A model generated the notes under the pieces. That model saw only the letters and a list, made by a program, of their open reading frames with translations, did no database searches and was not told the DNA's origin. 11,451 nt of DNA from Candidatus Hodarchaeum mangrovi (lineage in GTDB: Archaea; Asgardarchaeota; Heimdallarchaeia; Hodarchaeales; Hodarchaeaceae). Numbering within the stretch: position 1 is the stretch's first letter; every line of letters starts with the position of its first letter. Position numbers and translations under genes: made by a program. Of this stretch, positions 2,361 to 11,451 are shown one piece after another. The stretch spans positions 1 to 11,451 of the forward strand of contig JAEOUE010000057.1 in the NCBI GenBank assembly GCA_016839515.1, in the 5' to 3' direction.

Positions 2361-3239
2361 TCAAGATTTTAATTTTTCAATGATCTCCGTGAAATGGTTT
2401 ATATAAGTAGACATGTGTCCTTCATCAGGATAAATTGTTATGTTACAGTTTGGAATTTGATCACTTATTTCTTGTGCTATTACAACTGGAATAGTTGAAT
2501 CCAATTCACCATGAAATATATGAACATTAACTGTGTTTGGGATTTCATTTAACTCGAAACCCCAAGGTTTTGTATATAATCTAAAATCCTCTGCAGGGCC
2601 CTTTATTCCCTGATTATATGCTTCTTTAGTTTTATTAATCATCCTTTTTTTAATCGTAGAATCACTAATCAGTGCCTGATCTCTCTCAGGTAACTTTTTA
2701 TATAATTTTTGAAAGTTTTTTTCCCACCATTGTTCGTTATTAAATCTTCGGAGAGTTAAGGTGAGCATTAAACGGTGTAACAATGGAAAACGCCTAGCAA
2801 TAATAAACTGATATCGTGTCTGCTTCTCAATCTTATCTTTTATTAAATTATATGGTCCTAAACCAGAGACAATAGCACATCCAGTTAGAAAATCAGGTAT
2901 TTTATATGCACAAGCTAAAGCATAAGGAGCACCTCCGCTTCCTCCCAGAACAGCGAATTTGTCAATAGCTAGATGTTCTGCTAGTTCAATTATGTCATTT
3001 GGCCAGTCTGTTATCAATCGGTCCTTTTGGAAATCAGAAAGACCCATTCCAGGTCTATCAGGACATACAAAACGGATTTCCAGTTCGTTACAGAATGATT
3101 CTTTTCCAAATACTGCTTCAAGACGACTGCCATCTCTACCGTGAAAATAAAAAATCGGTACCGCATTTGGATTTCCATATTCAATATAACCCAGATTACG
3201 ACCATTTGATAATTCAATAGTTTGAGATATATCCTTCAT
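2361..3239 (-). CDS. Alpha/beta-fold hydrolase (Ser-Asp-His)
   Basis: GRNLGYIEYG, FHG, PDRPGMGLSD, nucleophile elbow GGSGG, HGELD (acid) and EGH (His). Shine-Dalgarno-like GAGGT upstream of the ATG. Confidence 0.93.
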   Translation of the reverse strand: MKDISQTIELSNGRNLGYIEYGNPNAVPIFYFHGRDGSRLEAVFGKESFCNELEIRFVCPDRPGMGLSDFQKDRLITDWPNDIIELAEHLAIDKFAVLGGSGGAPYALACAYKIPDFLTGCAIVSGLGPYNLIKDKIEKQTRYQFIIARRFPLLHRLMLTLTLRRFNNEQWWEKNFQKLYKKLPERDQALISDSTIKKRMINKTKEAYNQGIKGPAEDFRLYTKPWGFELNEIPNTVNVHIFHGELDSTIPVVIAQEISDQIPNCNITIYPDEGHMSTYINHFTEIIEKLKS

Positions 3240-3318: not shown

Positions 3319-4275
3319 CTAAATAATAGTCACTTGTAAACCAGCTTCTTGTGCTACTATTTCAAAGGTTTTAAGATCATTGTCTTGAATTTTTAATTTT
3401 TTATTCAATAAATATGGGCGACCTAATTCTTGGTATTTTCCTCTTCCCCATTCATGATATTTAAGAAACCTAATATTTTTGATTCCAAATTCTGTGCATA
3501 AATCAATGGTCTCTTTAATGTTTTCAAGATAATCATTAATCCCTGGAATAATTGGGACAGAAATTGTTATTTTGTTAACTTCATTTTGACTTAATCTTTT
3601 AAGATTTAAATGAATTTTTTCATTACTTACCCCTGTTAATGCTTTATGAAATTTTGAATCAATAATTTTTAGGTCAAAGAAGAAGAAATCAATATTAGGT
3701 AGGAAATCAACTACTTTGTCCCAATCAAAATAACCACAAGTCTCTACCCCAACAGAAAAGCCAACTGCCATAGTTTTCTTTAAGAATTCCCTAATAAAAC
3801 CTGTATGGGCTAGTGGTTCACCTCCTGAGAGTGTTATTCCTCCTCCTGAATTTCTAAATAATAAAGAATTCTTTTTTACTTTTTCAAATAAACCTAAAAC
3901 TGTAATAGAGTATCCAACGGTCTTTAAAGCATTTTCAGGACACATTTTAGTACATGTCTTTGATTTACACATTAAACAATGCTCTCTGCTAATAATTGGG
4001 AAATTTGAATTAGAACAATCAATATTAAGAAAAGGACAAGTGTTTTCACATCTCCTACATTTTTTGCATTTAATCCTAAAATAAATTATTTCTGGATCAA
4101 ATAATTGACTTTCTGGATTCGAACACCAAGAACACCGAAGATAACAACCTTTAAAAAAAATAACTGTCCTTATTCCAGGCCCATCATCTACACAATAATC
4201 TTGTATATTAAAAATTATTGTTTCTTCATTTTTGAAGGATAAACGATTTATTAAATCTCGTGCCAATGTCATCAA
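3319..4275 (-). CDS. Glycyl-radical enzyme activating enzyme (radical SAM) with ferredoxin-like insert
   Basis: DGPGIRTVIFFKGCYLRCSWCSNPES (CxxxCxxC at C44/C48/C51), GGITLSGGEP, VETCG and FDLK. The insert has CxxCxxCxxxCP and CxxCx4CxxxCP. The start (TTG 4275 or ATG 4272) overlaps the GRE stop codon. Confidence 0.96.
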   Translation of the reverse strand: MMTLARDLINRLSFKNEETIIFNIQDYCVDDGPGIRTVIFFKGCYLRCSWCSNPESQLFDPEIIYFRIKCKKCRRCENTCPFLNIDCSNSNFPIISREHCLMCKSKTCTKMCPENALKTVGYSITVLGLFEKVKKNSLLFRNSGGGITLSGGEPLAHTGFIREFLKKTMAVGFSVGVETCGYFDWDKVVDFLPNIDFFFFDLKIIDSKFHKALTGVSNEKIHLNLKRLSQNEVNKITISVPIIPGINDYLENIKETIDLCTEFGIKNIRFLKYHEWGRGKYQELGRPYLLNKKLKIQDNDLKTFEIVAQEAGLQVTII

Positions 4276-6758
4276 AGCATTATTTCAGTTCTTTCAATAA
4301 CTTGGTCTTGAATGGACTTGCTTAACTCAACAAAGAAAGCACTAAATCCAGCAACACGAACAATCAAATCGCGATACTTGTCTGGATTTTTTTGAGCGTC
4401 TCTTAACATCTTTGTATCAACCACATTAAATTGTAATTGAAAACCAAGGTAATCAAAATATGTTTTAATCAAGGAAATTAATTTTTTTGAACCTGAAATT
4501 CCTTTTAGAGCAGTAGGATGGAATTTCATATTATGAAGCCCACCTCGTATCTTAGTATGGTCAACTTTCGCTGCTGATAAGATTGTGGCAACTGGCCCAT
4601 TAAGATCAGTTCCGGGGAATGGTGAGGTTACTCCATCACATAATGACACTCCTGAAAGCCTTCCATCAGGAGTTGCTCCAGTTACTTTTCCAAATGGTGT
4701 ATGAGTACTAATCGCTAACATTGACGGATCATATGGTTTACCTAAATAATTAATCCCATTCTTTACGAATTCACAATAAGTATTAAAGAGATCAACAAAG
4801 ATCTCATCAACATAATCATTATTATTCCCCCACTTGGGAGCATCAAGAGCTTTTCTTCTCATATCATCGTTGTTTTTGAAATTATTTTTACAAGCTTCCA
4901 TGATATCCGAGATGGAATATAATTTTTCATCTTCTACAAGCATTTTTATTGCAGCAAGAGAATTTGCAACATTTACCATTCCTGTGGAAAGAGTAGTCGG
5001 TACTTCATTACAAATTGCACCACCATCATCAAGAGATAAACCTCTTTCTATACAATCTCTGATTAAAAGGGAAGAATAAATTAGATTACAGGTCTGTCGA
5101 TGAGCTGCCATAACAATGTTCCAGTAAGATTGCCAATTTTGTATAGCTATTTCTAAATGAGTCTTATAGGCCTCAATTAATTCTTCATAATTTTGAGGAA
5201 TCTTTGTTTCAGTGAATTGCAAACCTGTACGTAGATCTTTTCCTCCATACATTGCTAATTCAAGTAATTTCCCATGATTAATAAATCCTGGTTGAACAAT
5301 TCCATAACTCATCCCTTCCATAGTTGGTTCAGTACATCCTCCCATAGCTGCATATTTCCTAATAACAGGAACTGGTAATCCAGATTTTTGTAATTCATGT
5401 TGGATATATATCTTAAGATTAAACCATGCTGGGAAACCACATCCCGTTTTTACACATTCAACTGCTTTTAAAAGAAATTCCTCACTAAGAGAATCATCAT
5501 ACCATATTGATAAGGTAGGCTGTATAGTTTGACAATTAATAGCTGCTTGCAAAATTAACATCGATAATTCGTTATCACCTCTTCTTCCATTTTCATCTGT
5601 CCCTCCAATAATCATATTTTGAAATAAGTTTCCTGATCCAAGGCCCTCCCAAGAGAATGAAGCCATATATTCTATTTCGGTCATTTTTATACGTAATGCT
5701 TCTAGTAACTCTAATACATCATCATCAGAAATATTTGTATCATTCTTATAAAAATAATACATATACCTGTCAAATCTTCCAGGTGAATATCCAAGATGAG
5801 CTCCCTCAATATGACCAGCTAGGTAAATAAACCAAAAAGCTTGGATAGCTTCCTTAAAGTTTCGAGGTGGATATTTTGGTACCAATTTACAAGTATTAGC
5901 AATCATAAATAACTCTTGTTTTCTTTTTGGATCCATTTCTGTTTGCGCTAATCTCTTTGCTTCTTTAGCATAAATGTTAGCCCAATTAATTGTTGCTTCT
6001 AGTACTCTTATTCCAGACCTCCAAAAATATATTTTTTCTGCTGATTTATAGTCAGTTATTCGTGTTTTTGAAATATTGATTTTTATTCTTTCAATGATTT
6101 TTAAAAATCCTTCATTCAATGCTGACTCGAAATCAAGAACATATCTTCCTTCTGGAGCAGGATCATGGGGAGCTGTATATAATACTGCTTCCCAACCCTT
6201 TTCGATGTAATCTGCTTCAGAAAATGTCGTTTTCCATAAAGCATCACCTAAATCCTGCATATTTTTGTCTTTAAAATATTCTGCACATTCTTTCAGCTTA
6301 CTTTTATCATTTTTAGATATAAGAAATTTATGAGAAAAAAGTTCAAATTCTCCTGACCTAGCAAGTTCTCTTCCTTTGGCAATACCACCTCCTTCTCCTA
6401 AATCTGTCACAATATCCTGAGCTTCTTGTTGTTCTTCTTCAAAAACTCTCTGAATGTAAGCAGAAGCATAATTACAATAAGGAATGGCTCCACGGACAAA
6501 TCTTGTCTTATTTCCAACAATAAGCTCATTATCTCTGATCACAGGTGTTATATTTTCTAAAGCATAGGCATGACATTCAGCTCTTCTTCCTAGTACATTC
6601 ATACCATCAGTTTTCCGATGTGCCTCCATATAATAATAGATATACTCAGGATCGATGATCAAAGGTTCTGATAAATATTTATCACGTAATTGTCGAATTC
6701 TATCCGTAGAGGGTTCTTTGACAATTTCACGTCTTTCAAAGCTAAGTGATTCCGTCAC
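4272..6758 (-). CDS. Glycyl-radical enzyme (PFL2/glycerol dehydratase superfamily), probably of the arylacetate-decarboxylase branch
   Basis: Glycyl-radical loop LIVRVAGFS (G804, 4347-4349), Cys loop GGCTEP (C475/E477), ELIVG, SPGRFD and GATPDGR. The single active-site Cys argues against true pyruvate formate-lyase, which has CC. GTG start. Confidence is for the superfamily; the branch assignment is less certain. Confidence 0.95.
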   Translation of the reverse strand: MTESLSFERREIVKEPSTDRIRQLRDKYLSEPLIIDPEYIYYYMEAHRKTDGMNVLGRRAECHAYALENITPVIRDNELIVGNKTRFVRGAIPYCNYASAYIQRVFEEEQQEAQDIVTDLGEGGGIAKGRELARSGEFELFSHKFLISKNDKSKLKECAEYFKDKNMQDLGDALWKTTFSEADYIEKGWEAVLYTAPHDPAPEGRYVLDFESALNEGFLKIIERIKINISKTRITDYKSAEKIYFWRSGIRVLEATINWANIYAKEAKRLAQTEMDPKRKQELFMIANTCKLVPKYPPRNFKEAIQAFWFIYLAGHIEGAHLGYSPGRFDRYMYYFYKNDTNISDDDVLELLEALRIKMTEIEYMASFSWEGLGSGNLFQNMIIGGTDENGRRGDNELSMLILQAAINCQTIQPTLSIWYDDSLSEEFLLKAVECVKTGCGFPAWFNLKIYIQHELQKSGLPVPVIRKYAAMGGCTEPTMEGMSYGIVQPGFINHGKLLELAMYGGKDLRTGLQFTETKIPQNYEELIEAYKTHLEIAIQNWQSYWNIVMAAHRQTCNLIYSSLLIRDCIERGLSLDDGGAICNEVPTTLSTGMVNVANSLAAIKMLVEDEKLYSISDIMEACKNNFKNNDDMRRKALDAPKWGNNNDYVDEIFVDLFNTYCEFVKNGINYLGKPYDPSMLAISTHTPFGKVTGATPDGRLSGVSLCDGVTSPFPGTDLNGPVATILSAAKVDHTKIRGGLHNMKFHPTALKGISGSKKLISLIKTYFDYLGFQLQFNVVDTKMLRDAQKNPDKYRDLIVRVAGFSAFFVELSKSIQDQVIERTEIML

Positions 6759-6805
6759 TTTTCATCTACTTCTTATCTGATTTTGAATAATTCTTATAGT
6801 TAGTA

Positions 6806-6826
6806 TTAATATAAATTATATTTTCA
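6806..6826 (-). promoter_or_regulatory. Candidate archaeal TATA/BRE region for the GRE operon
   Basis: The minus strand reads GAAAATATAATTTATATTAA about 50 nt upstream of the GRE GTG. The background is AT-rich, so this is tentative. Confidence 0.35.
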
Positions 6827-7007
6827 TGCTTTAAGATTATCTAGTTTGGTTCCATAATTCAATCTCTCCAAAAAAGAGGTTAGGATATTTAGCTCCCAGT
6901 TTTATAATAAAAGAACATTTTATTGAAATTATTAAAGGAATAAAGAATATACTAAAATAATTCATTAATCATTTATAGTGCCAAATCAGAAATTCATAAT
7001 TAATAAC

Positions 7008-7015
7008 TATATAAA
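7008..7015 (+). promoter_or_regulatory. Candidate TATA box for the M48 peptidase gene
   Basis: TATATAAA ends 30 nt before the ATG at 7046, consistent with a short-leader or leaderless archaeal transcript. Confidence 0.45.
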
Positions 7016-7045
7016 CACATTATTGGATTTCAAGTAAGTAATGAA

Positions 7046-8146
7046 ATGAACTCATTTAATCCTACATCAACTCCTTTACGTCTTCCTCTCATCGATTGGG
7101 TTGTATTAGGATTTTATACGATATTTGTACCTCTTTTGATTACTGGTCTTCTAAGTATTTCATTAATAATCTTTTCAGATTTTATTAATTCGCTATTGAT
7201 CTTGCTATTAACAGTATCAATAATTTTTATTTTTCTCCTGTATATTTTTATTTACTCATATCTAGAGCTAAGGAACAATGCTTTGAAAGTTCATTATTTT
7301 CAATTTTTGCCTTCAGGAAGAGATGTAATTTTAGTGTTTATCAAATTAGTTTATCAAATTCTTTTTGTAGGACTTTTTATTGTTCTAGTATTTAATAGTC
7401 TCCTGATAACACAATTTGCTCCGTGGTTTTACCTTTTAATTTCTCTAGGTTTATCATTAATCATTCAAGCTATATTTGCTTCCTTGTCAAATAATGCAAA
7501 ACGACAACTTTTAGCCACTGCACTAGAACCTGTTAGCTCTGATATTATCCAAAGATTAAATATCCAAAAAAATGAACAAAAAATAACAGAATTCCGTTTC
7601 GCTGACATTCAAATTCCTTCATTATTCTTAACAGCTGGCGTTATGCCTTACGGGATGAATTATGCATGCTTAATCTCGAGATATTTCAAATGGAAGTTAA
7701 ATGATGATGAAATTCTAGCAGTCCTTGCTCATGAAATGGGGCACATCACTCATAATCATATTAAAGTTCAGTTTTTATTTTCAGGCATGGATGGACTACT
7801 AAGGAGTCTTCGAATATTTTGTATCTTTTTTTATCTCGTCTACTACTCTGAAATTTCTGCTACTAACTTATTAGCCCAATTTTTATTCATTGTAGTTATT
7901 TTTCTAACTTTTGGTGCAACTGCTTTATTAGAAATTATTAAACGTTATCGATTTTTCCTTCAAGAAATTCGTGCTGACAATTACAGTAAAAAACACGTTG
8001 ATAACAAGTTGATGGCTAAAACCTTAGCTAAGATCCCTCAAACCATTCCAGCAGCCATATCTCCCCTAGCACAAGATTTCTTAAAATTCCGAATTTCACT
8101 TTTAACGATAAGTTTTTCAGTTGAGCAGAATGAAGTCATTCCCTAA
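7046..8146 (+). CDS. M48 family (HtpX/Ste24-like) integral membrane zinc metallopeptidase
   Basis: LNDDEILAVLAHEMGH (HExxH at 7730-7744) and the third ligand in QEIRAD. About four N-terminal TM helices and two more between the zinc motifs. Confidence 0.88.
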   Translation: MNSFNPTSTPLRLPLIDWVVLGFYTIFVPLLITGLLSISLIIFSDFINSLLILLLTVSIIFIFLLYIFIYSYLELRNNALKVHYFQFLPSGRDVILVFIKLVYQILFVGLFIVLVFNSLLITQFAPWFYLLISLGLSLIIQAIFASLSNNAKRQLLATALEPVSSDIIQRLNIQKNEQKITEFRFADIQIPSLFLTAGVMPYGMNYACLISRYFKWKLNDDEILAVLAHEMGHITHNHIKVQFLFSGMDGLLRSLRIFCIFFYLVYYSEISATNLLAQFLFIVVIFLTFGATALLEIIKRYRFFLQEIRADNYSKKHVDNKLMAKTLAKIPQTIPAAISPLAQDFLKFRISLLTISFSVEQNEVIP

Positions 8147-8771
8147 AATTGATGTTATTATTTATTCGAGATTCGAAGTATTGACAGAGGATGGTGGGAT
8201 GTACACAGTAAATCTACCGATTTTTTGTCAACAATGTGGACAATGTTGCCGTGATGTCAGCTTTCCTGAACCTGAATTATTTGACTCTACATTGAAATTA
8301 ACACTAGATTTAAAATTAATTACACTAGATTATCTAAAACAGTTTAACAATAAAAGTAATTGTTCACTTGCCTCAATCAAACCATGTATGTTTTTAAATG
8401 AAAATCGATGTAAGATACACCCAGTTAGACCATTATATTGTCGTGAGTGGTTTCCTCGTGTGACATCTCCCTGTTTAGCTTTCAAACTTCATAATAGAAT
8501 GGGTCTATTGTTACTTCGGGATAAAAACTATCATGTCGGTATACGCGAGATAATTCACATCACCAATCATAAGCTTAATTCAGTCTATCCTCAAGTGAAA
8601 GACTCTAAAAACATAAAGAAAGAGACACTGCACAATTATTACTCGCCTTCACTGGAGGAGGCACGAAAGATTTGGAATAAATTCACCTCCTTTAATCTTT
8701 CACAAACTGAACAAAAAATATTTCTTATAATTAATCCTGGAATTAATCTTCAGCAAGAAAACTTTCAATAA
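8130..8771 (+). CDS. YkgJ family CxxCxxCC cysteine-cluster protein (putative Zn or Fe-S binding)
   Basis: FCQQCGQCC, PCMFL, RCKIHPVRPLYCREWFP. The in-frame ATG at 8130 is preferred over TTG 8121; both overlap the M48 3' end. Confidence 0.85.
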   Translation: MKSFPKIDVIIYSRFEVLTEDGGMYTVNLPIFCQQCGQCCRDVSFPEPELFDSTLKLTLDLKLITLDYLKQFNNKSNCSLASIKPCMFLNENRCKIHPVRPLYCREWFPRVTSPCLAFKLHNRMGLLLLRDKNYHVGIREIIHITNHKLNSVYPQVKDSKNIKKETLHNYYSPSLEEARKIWNKFTSFNLSQTEQKIFLIINPGINLQQENFQ

Positions 8772-8922: not shown

Positions 8923-9498
8923 TTGGAAAAAGAACAACAGGATCAAATATTACTTGTTAAAGAGTCAGCTTTGGATTTATTGGGGCATTTTTCAACTGCT
9001 GCGGCAATACTGGCTGGTTTTTTTCTTACTGCTGCTGTTTTCCTTGTCTCTGTCAATGCAGAGAGAAGTAGTTCATTACAGTACAGCTTTCTAGATCAAC
9101 CAATTGGGGATAATTTTGGTATTTCTGATAGAATTCGTCAGTGGTTCCCCCAACTTAATGAATGGTGGCCAAATCATTTTACTTATATGCTTACAATCTT
9201 TATTATCCTATTTTTATTAGCTATGTTTTCTTATGCCTGTTACATTCAAGCGGGACTAGCCCATATGAAGGTCTTAGAGGGGAAAACCACTTCATTAGAA
9301 TTAGTTTGGTTGTGGCAAAAAGCAGGTTTAAGAATTTTAATAATCGGACTTCTGGCTGCTTTTATAAGCCTGCCTTGGGCAATTTTAAGATTTGCGTTTG
9401 AACAGGCACTTTCTTGGACATTTTATATCCTTTTTATAGTATTTATCTTCGGCCTTCTTCTTGGTTTGCGGATTAGATGGGCACGAAAGAAAAAATAA
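8923..9498 (+). CDS. Hypothetical integral membrane protein, about 4 TM helices
   Basis: Four hydrophobic segments and a basic C-terminal tail (RWARKKK). GGAGTG at 8908-8913 precedes the TTG start. The ORF fills the gap between genes. Confidence 0.75.
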   Translation: MEKEQQDQILLVKESALDLLGHFSTAAAILAGFFLTAAVFLVSVNAERSSSLQYSFLDQPIGDNFGISDRIRQWFPQLNEWWPNHFTYMLTIFIILFLLAMFSYACYIQAGLAHMKVLEGKTTSLELVWLWQKAGLRILIIGLLAAFISLPWAILRFAFEQALSWTFYILFIVFIFGLLLGLRIRWARKKK

Positions 9499-11197: not shown

Positions 11198-11451
11198 GTG
11201 TCTGGACAGAAATTGCAAGAAGAAGTAATTATGGTTTCAACAACGAATGAAATTCCAGGATATGAGATTGTAGCTTATCTCGGGATTGTTTTTGGTATTA
11301 CAGTTCGATCTCGAGGTATGGGTGGAAGATGTATTGGAGGTTGTGAGGCTTGTTTTGGCGGTGAAATAACAGCTTATACCCAAAGTGCGATTGAGGCACG
11401 TAATGATGCCATCAACCGTTTATGTTATCAAGTTCAACAAGTGGGAGGTAA
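11198..11451 (+). CDS. YbjQ/UPF0145 family protein, 3'-partial (not in the ORF track)
   Basis: Manual translation from GTG 11198 (AGGTG at 11187-11191; alternative ATG 11231): MSGQKLQEEVIMVSTTNEIPGYEIVAYLGIVFGITVRSRGMGGRCIGGCEACFGGEITAYTQSAIEARNDAINRLCYQVQQVGG. This matches the family pattern TT..IPG.EI...LG.V.G..VRSR...GGE...YT.....AR..A..R. Confidence 0.9.
   Translation, partial: MSGQKLQEEVIMVSTTNEIPGYEIVAYLGIVFGITVRSRGMGGRCIGGCEACFGGEITAYTQSAIEARNDAINRLCYQVQQVGG

Follow-up and report, generated by a model that had tools for sequence, protein, structure and literature searches.

A glycyl radical enzyme and its activase in Candidatus Hodarchaeum mangrovi belong to an uncharacterised clade beside indoleacetate and 4-hydroxyphenylacetate decarboxylases

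We analysed a stretch of 11,451 nucleotides from Candidatus Hodarchaeum mangrovi (contig JAEOUE010000057.1; hereafter, the window), the minus strand of which carries a glycyl radical enzyme (GRE) gene and the gene of its activase at positions 3319–6758. The two genes form an intact cassette, probably acquired horizontally, from an uncharacterised clade of the subclass that contains indoleacetate decarboxylase (IAD) and 4-hydroxyphenylacetate decarboxylase (HPAD), and the GRE is probably an arylacetate decarboxylase. Radical arylacetate decarboxylation is pointed to by the conserved Gly/Cys/Glu triad, Arg lid, gate Trp and IAD-type pocket. Simple orthology to IAD is argued against by an invariant His-to-Gln replacement, a sister-clade position and missing extensions. 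The clade is referred to here as the Gln-type clade.

A preliminary description of this DNA took 3319–6758 as a single GRE. A GRE is encoded there, but the span holds two co-directional genes, the second of which encodes the activase. The GRE gene (protein P0001, 828 amino acids (aa), GTG start) occupies 4272–6758 (−). The gene of the activating radical S-adenosylmethionine (SAM) enzyme occupies 3319–4275 (−), and encodes 318 aa when read from TTG 4275 or 317 aa when read from ATG 4272. One base is common to this ATG and the GRE stop codon TGA (4274–4272), which suggests that the two genes are translationally coupled. No open reading frame (ORF) for a small subunit was found between or beside the two genes, and the space between them is too short for one. 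Neither ORF is disrupted, all six Asgard copies of the GRE are 828 aa long, and every catalytic residue is present.

The GRE and its neighbour show the traits of the GRE superfamily. Pfam assigned residues 18–690 to PFL-like (PF02901, E = 2e-156) and residues 712–810 to Gly_radical (PF01228, E = 1.1e-28), matches far stronger than chance would give. The glycyl motif RVAGF (801–805) contains the radical site G804 (codon 4347–4349, −), an invariant column in a 54-row alignment. The Cys loop GGCTEP (473–478) contains C475 as its sole Cys; C475-T-E477 (5328–5336, −) is the CXE motif, made of the thiyl radical Cys and 'Glu1', and aligns with C500/E502 of the Olsenella uli IAD (OuIAD) and C503/E505 of HPAD. 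These residues had been listed in the preliminary description together with PEGRYVLDF (202–210), DLGEGGG (119–125), KFLI (144–147), GSGNLFQN (374–381), QPGFI (489–493) and TTLSTG (588–593), and all of them were found in the translated ORF. The adjoining activase scored 298.7 bits against TIGR02494 (cut-off 174) and reached no equivalog cut-off. It retains all 3 + 8 cluster cysteines: the radical-SAM motif CX3CX2C (44–51) and the four-Cys motifs of the auxiliary clusters, CX2CX2CX3C (70–80) and CX2CX4CX3C (100–112).

We placed the GRE by profile searches, a phylogenetic tree and a structure model. The best NCBIfam model by a clear margin was IAD (NF033718, 795.1 bits, cut-off 1100), followed by HPAD (NF033715, 545.5 bits, cut-off 1150) and PFL2/glycerol dehydratase (PFL2-3, TIGR01774, 537.5 bits, cut-off 678.2); none of the three cut-offs was reached. 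An exhaustive HMMER search of 1.84 billion cluster representatives placed the GRE in the 50%-identity cluster of P0049 (67% identical), and the next clusters were 36–45% identical. When 32 of the 150 listed cluster representatives were scanned with NCBIfam, P0123 was identified as IAD (1187.7 bits against 1100) and P0139 as HPAD (1725 against 1150), and P0049 scored 791.5 on the IAD model, near the window GRE. For the tree (IQ-TREE, LG+C20+F+G4 with posterior mean site frequencies, PMSF), 12 near-redundant or extra outgroup rows were dropped from 58, leaving 46 rows and 832 columns, and six PFL2/dehydratase-like representatives formed the root. The HPAD group (three rows) and the IAD group (four rows) were joined with a support of 99 in the Shimodaira–Hasegawa-like approximate likelihood-ratio test (SH-aLRT). 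Their sister was the window clade (29 rows, 99), and the union was supported at 99. Because the window clade is sister to IAD plus HPAD, it falls into the IAD/HPAD subclass but into neither family. The AlphaFold2 model of the GRE, built from the 54-row alignment (mean pLDDT 92.8, pTM 0.93), has the ten-stranded-barrel GRE fold, with TM 0.86–0.94 to solved GREs among the best 50 matches. Foldseek ranked HPAD (2Y8N/2YAJ) first, with TM (query) 0.93–0.94; dehydratases and CutC reached 0.90, so that the margin, though consistent, is small. The best model, the tree and the fold comparison thus agree with the earlier assignment to the decarboxylase branch and not to the dehydratases or PFL2.

The substrate pocket was compared with that of OuIAD. 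In the substrate-bound cryo-electron microscopy structure of OuIAD, the carboxylate faces Cys500, Arg226 stacks on the indole, and His514 hydrogen-bonds the indole N–H; the hydrophobic pocket is lined by Phe401, Phe517, Leu616, Leu730 and Ile731, Trp392 is the gate of the channel, and Glu502 serves as a proton relay via water (2026 preprint, PMC13232127). The same preprint also names G853 and C223, and calls the effect of His514 substitution modest. Mutagenesis of OuIAD identified E502, R226, L616, F401 and W392 as essential, since their substitution abolished activity (PMC9248008; review PMC13450708). The H514A variant showed a 66-fold lower kcat and a 70-fold higher Km, and L616E was inactive (PMC9248008).

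In a 58-row alignment, the window GRE is identical to the IAD rows at R205, W370, F379, C475, E477, F492, L590, L681, I683 and G804. All five residues essential in IAD are therefore kept, as E477, R205, L590, F379 and W370 in the order given above. The R205 codon lies at 6144–6146 (−), and this Arg corresponds to R226 of OuIAD and R223 of HPAD; the L590 codon lies at 4989–4991 (−), and this Leu corresponds to L616 of OuIAD and to E637 ('Glu2') of HPAD. Three positions differ from IAD: His514 is replaced by Gln489 (5292–5294, −), which is the clade-defining difference, Fc-Ser733 by Ala682, and Cys/Met223 by Pro202. The signature P-G-R-W-[F/Y]-C-E-Q-F-L-L-A-I-G was shared by every one of the 36 clade rows, of which 6 are Asgard, 8 eukaryotic and 22 bacterial or unnamed. 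The four IAD rows read [C/M]-G-R-W-[F/Y]-C-E-H-F-L-L-S-I-G, and the HPAD representative reads P-G-R-V-F-C-E-G-F-E-I-S-V-G. We extended the comparison to members from at least 136 distinct 90%-identity clusters. All 136 have Gln at the Q489 position and keep W, F/Y, C, E, Q, F, L, L, I and G at the pocket and catalytic columns; G-R is present in 134, and the remaining two are N-terminally truncated fragments. Standing where IAD has its indole-binding His, the invariant Gln489 may mark a distinct or shifted substrate preference. Database names for members of the clade are inconsistent and include formate acetyltransferase, HPAD and IAD.

The window GRE may still be a plain IAD orthologue, a skatole synthase that the curated model misses, although we consider this unlikely. 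It resembles IAD in its best curated model, Cys-loop length, CXE motif, R/W/F-Y/F/L/L pocket and gate residues (including the equivalents of F517 and L730), extension 1, lack of a small subunit, and adjoining activase with two auxiliary clusters. The effect described for His514 substitution is modest (PMC13232127), the Gln amide could accept the bond from the indole N–H, and some clade members are named IAD by JGI pipelines. On the other hand, the clade lies outside IAD in the tree, not nested in it, and the window GRE scores 795 bits compared with 1188 for a true IAD-cluster representative. His in all four IAD rows against Gln in all 136 clade members is the pattern of a specificity switch, and the Ala and Pro replacements and the loss of extension 2 and the N-terminal extension also separate the window GRE from OuIAD and OsIAD.

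The comparison with HPAD in the preliminary description was correct in what it covered. The HPAD structure 2Y8N has G-R (R223), a GAGGG...KF segment and SGNTFNN, and the by-eye mapping of two HPAD residues was reproduced. In the phmmer alignment, HPAD E637 aligns with L590. HPAD H536 ends an 11-residue insertion found only in HPAD, directly before F537, which aligns with F492; H536 therefore abuts G491. Both HPAD residues are missing here. The comparison was limited to HPAD, however, and the near-IAD pocket was overlooked. CsHPAD (2Y8N/2YAJ) is the top structural neighbour and shares the Arg, the GxGGG...KF cap, SGN(T/L)F and C-x-E with the window GRE. In contrast, the window GRE is 31–36% identical to HPAD, has Leu for Glu2, and is without H536, the loop insertion and extension 2, and the cassette contains no gamma small subunit.

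Three additions are defined for IAD: extension 1, which forms the active-site cap, extension 2, and an extension at the N terminus (PMC13232127). Extension 1, which is common to IAD and HPAD, is present in the window GRE at approximately residues 107–147 (6318–6440, −): the DLGEGGG...KFLI block comprises 68 residues. The IAD rows have 62–63 residues here and the HPAD row has 71, but a pair of outgroup rows, of which one is of the PFL2-3 type, has 39–44. Both extension 2 (38 residues against 56–61) and the N-terminal extension or 'seatbelt' (34 against 48–61) are absent. The Cys loop is as long as in IAD and is without the HPAD insertion. The model of the HPAD small (gamma) subunit, NF033716, gave no match in the host genome, which is 91% complete, in a search run without positive control. 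The window GRE is a 'minimal' form, in which the cap is kept and extension 2, the seatbelt and the small subunit are missing.

PhdB/PAD and AAD (7E7L) are likewise GREs that decarboxylate arylacetates without a small subunit. The reported traits of PhdB are Gln at Cys+2, Tyr691, Trp495 and no extensions (PMC13450708, PMC13232127, PMC9248008). The window GRE differs from PAD in having Glu at Cys+2 (PMC9248008 for PAD), and from both PAD and AAD in having extension 1, as both are described as being without extensions 1 and 2 (PMC13232127). AAD scored 308.7 bits by phmmer. Glu at Cys+2 and extension 1 would weigh against membership in PhdB.

The following mechanism is proposed by homology to OuIAD and CsHPAD. 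The activase would generate the glycyl radical, which would be handed to C475, and C475 would attack an aromatic acetic acid held with its ring in the hydrophobic pocket of F379, F492, L590 and L681, beneath R205. W370 would gate the channel. E477 would act as the proton relay to the Cys. CO2 would then be lost and a methyl-arene released, as in IAD and HPAD.

Several points weigh against this assignment. On the IAD model the GRE stays well short of the curated 1100 bits, and identity to IAD-group proteins is only 38–43%. The tree comes from a quick search, has SH-aLRT values as its sole measure of support, contains neither PhdB nor AAD, and has the clade member P0126 on a long branch. OuIAD numbering was transferred through a proxy, the Faecalicatena contorta IAD (a putative IAD in PMC6181972; numbering equal to OuIAD +2), which makes the L730/I731 equivalence uncertain; the Olsenella locus was not among the 15 and 33 loci obtained in contig scans with the IAD-cluster representative and an 8-row IAD alignment. 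The replacement of His by Gln could mean a different substrate, but it need not, because Gln can also form a hydrogen bond. We found no assay of any clade member in the literature. In the host genome, indolepyruvate:ferredoxin oxidoreductase was not found at 91% completeness (TIGR03336, best match 54 bits, cut-off 651), and Pfam scans of the window and related loci showed no transporter or aromatic-amino-acid gene linked to the cassette. Finally, pairwise phmmer against PDB sequences ranked glycerol dehydratase best (468 bits) and HPAD fourth (375 bits, in one stretch from 19 to 825); this ranking argues against a trivially close kinship to HPAD.

This top phmmer score also favours a GRE that is not a decarboxylase at all. 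It could be a dehydratase or eliminase, or an alkyl- or benzylsuccinate synthase (Ass/Bss) as proposed for Hermodarchaeota GREs, which were annotated from identities of 29–38% (PMC8163825). We regard these functions as improbable. Glycerol and propanediol dehydratases have G-H where the window GRE has G-R in phmmer alignments to solved structures, as the preliminary description had stated for glycerol dehydratase, and the GRE is under the PFL2-3 cut-off. The PDB chains of BSS and MASS scored only 243–291 bits (ranks 28–31 of 37, with just six PFL, formate acetyltransferase and GrcA matches below them), and no ORFs for the small beta and gamma subunits of X-succinate synthases adjoin the gene. 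The tree and the pocket residues side with IAD and HPAD.

Given an arylacetate decarboxylase, 4-hydroxyphenylacetate, which would yield p-cresol, is the leading candidate substrate while still short of probable. Indole-3-acetate, yielding skatole, and phenylacetate or another (hetero)arylacetate are both possible to a similar, somewhat lesser degree. 4-Hydroxyphenylacetate is put slightly ahead of indole-3-acetate because protist members of the clade are annotated as HPAD fusions and because of a statement on Mastigamoeba, according to which Mastigamoeba balamuthi acquired enzymes allowing p-cresol production (PMC8136499, citing Nyvltova 2017). For the same reason of protist annotation, the earlier proposal that the substrate is other than 4-hydroxyphenylacetate is not established.

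It is possible, then, that the GRE is a third structural type of true p-cresol-forming HPAD, without Glu2, His536 and a small subunit, in which Gln489 would bind the phenol OH. Relatives of the window GRE in Paratrimastix pyriformis and Hexamita inflata are annotated as '4-hydroxyphenylacetate decarboxylase-activating enzyme fusion protein' and 'HPAD', respectively, and the Archamoebae Pelomyxa schiedti and Rhizomastix libera also carry the gene. These protist proteins belong to the same clade, are 57–64% identical and share the pocket signature including Gln; they differ in that the GRE and activase form one chain of 1096–1186 aa. A Mastigamoeba fusion of HPAD and activase was reportedly linked to p-cresol in 2017, at the level of the organism and not by enzymology. 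A named Mastigamoeba protein was not among the 120 matches listed in a homology search from the Pelomyxa fusion, and Mastigamoeba is presumed to belong to the clade. In addition, AAD decarboxylates 4-hydroxyphenylacetate without the residues or small subunit of HPAD (PMC13450708). Against a p-cresol-forming enzyme, HPAD is reported to need Glu2 absolutely and OuIAD L616E is inactive (PMC9248008), and the window GRE has Leu at this position. Its hydrophobic pocket residues are those of IAD and fit a bicyclic ring.

A more speculative view, which we hold to be rather unlikely, is that the Gln-type clade forms a third class of radical arylacetate decarboxylase, minimal in build, in which the invariant Gln sets a preference for a substrate that no GRE has so far been assigned. 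On that view, phenylacetate, hydroxy- or amino-substituted indole- or phenylacetate, or imidazole-acetate would be examples of conceivable, if doubtful, substrates.

The cassette is on an Asgard contig, as the preliminary description had supposed. The metagenome-assembled genome (MAG) of the host has an estimated contamination of 6%. Flanking DNA of the window (a Na+/H+ exchanger gene, an ORF of 191 aa and YbjQ) matched 19 of the 21 other genomes of the genus with 64–86% DNA identity. Orthologues 87–90% identical to the GRE were found on contigs of up to 388 kb in MAGs labelled Hermod-, Hod-, Heimdall- and Promethearchaeota, and an archaeal RadA gene adjoins the orthologue on the 388-kb contig. 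The contig is assigned to Asgard archaea because of these flank matches and orthologues. The contamination estimate, the bacterial nature of the nearest non-Asgard relatives and a context that is not conserved would suit a gene that is decaying or that entered the bin from a bacterium by contamination. Either is very improbable given the Asgard contigs, a G+C content of the cassette that is the same as that of its flanks, and the intact ORFs with constant length and all catalytic residues.

Full-length orthologues (76–91% identity to P0001) were found in 7 of 400 Asgard genomes. Four are within the genus of the window (G000, G071, G072 and G076; 4 of 22 genomes), one is in another family of the class (G020), and two are in other classes (G202 and G108). 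The copy in another class that is 91% identical suggests transfer among Asgard lineages or a binning error. Some PFL-like GRE was detected at E ≤ 1e-100 to P0001 in 161 of the 400 genomes; these were mostly paralogues of about 780–800 aa with 32–38% identity, and many genomes had two. GREs are thus common in Asgard archaea, although the decarboxylase-type clade is rare.

The window clade spans bacteria, anaerobic protists and Asgard archaea. In the tree, the Asgard rows were monophyletic (100), were joined by P0007 (100), which from its score and identity is probably the G108 protein, and were nested among sequences of Anoxybacter, Ignavibacteria, Bacteroidetes and WOR-3. Across 11 related loci (5 Asgard and 6 bacterial), nothing but the GRE and activase genes was shared, and the flanking genes were unrelated. 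A Pfam scan of 46 of the 88 listed flanking ORFs of the related loci showed no recurrent transporter, aminotransferase or small subunit. From its distribution and the branching order, the cassette probably passed from bacteria to Asgard archaea and then spread patchily among Asgard lineages. The eukaryotic members, from Paratrimastix, Hexamita, Pelomyxa, Rhizomastix and further unnamed sources, are GRE–activase fusions and grouped together (SH-aLRT 93) next to a Cloacimonetes-type pair, away from the Asgard copies. Forcing Asgard and eukaryotic rows together lowered the log-likelihood by 42.2 units (p-AU of the approximately unbiased test, 0.045), a marginal rejection of a group that was named after the tree had been seen.

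The preliminary description took an archaeal GRE decarboxylase as a pointer to anaerobic fermentation of aromatic amino acids. Because the cassette is a patchy and horizontally acquired accessory, it tells little about Asgard metabolism in general. The host genome contains seven matches to the aldehyde:ferredoxin oxidoreductase family and three ADP-forming acyl-CoA synthetase-like matches, so the setting is compatible with amino-acid fermentation without being specific to it, and a supply of arylacetates is plausible. A second GRE of the host is encoded on another contig (C270:3395–5341, −, equal to L014:1084–3447, −) together with an activase (L014:3451–4263, −), and reached the HypD equivalog cut-off (1280.9 bits against 1100). 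This HypD-type GRE scored 440 bits to A. fulgidus PflD, which falls in the range from which PMC8163825 named the Hermodarchaeota GREs 'Ass/Bss'; it may be worth looking at that annotation again.

Upstream of the GRE gene, an AT-rich intergenic region of 287 bp (6759–7045), presumed to be a promoter region, separates it from a divergent M48 (HtpX-like) peptidase ORF (7046–8146, +). The latter overlaps by 26 bases an ORF at 8121–8771 (+), whose product has a putative Zn/Fe-chelating domain of the CxxCxxCC kind. Peptidases are abundant on the contig, which has an S8 subtilase ORF at 3–1142 as well as the M48 ORF. An alpha/beta-hydrolase gene (proline-iminopeptidase-like, S33 aminopeptidase-like or generic) adjoins the cassette or lies within 3 kb of it at three of the six Asgard loci (window 2361–3239, −; L004:6900–7742, −; L005:7288–8097, +); its position and orientation vary and the association may be due to chance. 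A 323-aa ORF at 1292–2263 (−) has a Ras-family small GTPase domain at residues 35–163 (E = 8.6e-16) and a C-terminal part of about 160 residues without assignment. None of the 21 other genomes of the genus gave a match to it at E ≤ 1e-20, although each had 3–38 first-look candidates. The 191-aa ORF at 8923–9498 (+) matched no Pfam or NCBIfam model, and its DNA is 70–72% identical in at least five genomes of the genus (G057, G058, G061, G062 and G063); it looks like a conserved gene of unknown function at the genus level. Contig C290 of the assembly opens with the same 127 bases with which the window ends (11325–11451), and the two contigs therefore probably join there.

We found no description of this enzyme from Asgard archaea in the literature on GREs or 4-hydroxyphenylacetate decarboxylase in this group. 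A metagenome survey of Guaymas reported GREs in Asgard archaea (n = 15) and HPAD in a Bathyarchaeota bin (PMC6258724). As stated in a 2026 review, every functionally characterised PFL-like GRE is bacterial, and whole clades, archaeal ones especially, are without validation (PMC13450708).

The cassette is a compact, intact and easily cloned representative of a large clade that stands beside skatole- and p-cresol-forming enzymes and has members in all three domains. Knowledge of its substrate would tell whether specificity in the IAD/HPAD subclass is switched at the His/Gln position and would test which extensions and subunits Kolbe-type decarboxylation needs. It would also clarify the role of the protist 'HPAD fusions' and correct the inconsistent names in databases. 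The weight of the finding for eukaryogenesis is lesser, because the Asgard and eukaryotic copies group apart and the gene is an accessory that few Asgard genomes carry. If the clade does prove to be a third class of arylacetate decarboxylase, a volatile methyl-arene would be given off by Asgard archaea, by many anaerobic bacteria that are still uncultured and by several protists of anaerobic habit, and with the window GRE an archaeal PFL-like GRE would have its function assigned for the first time.

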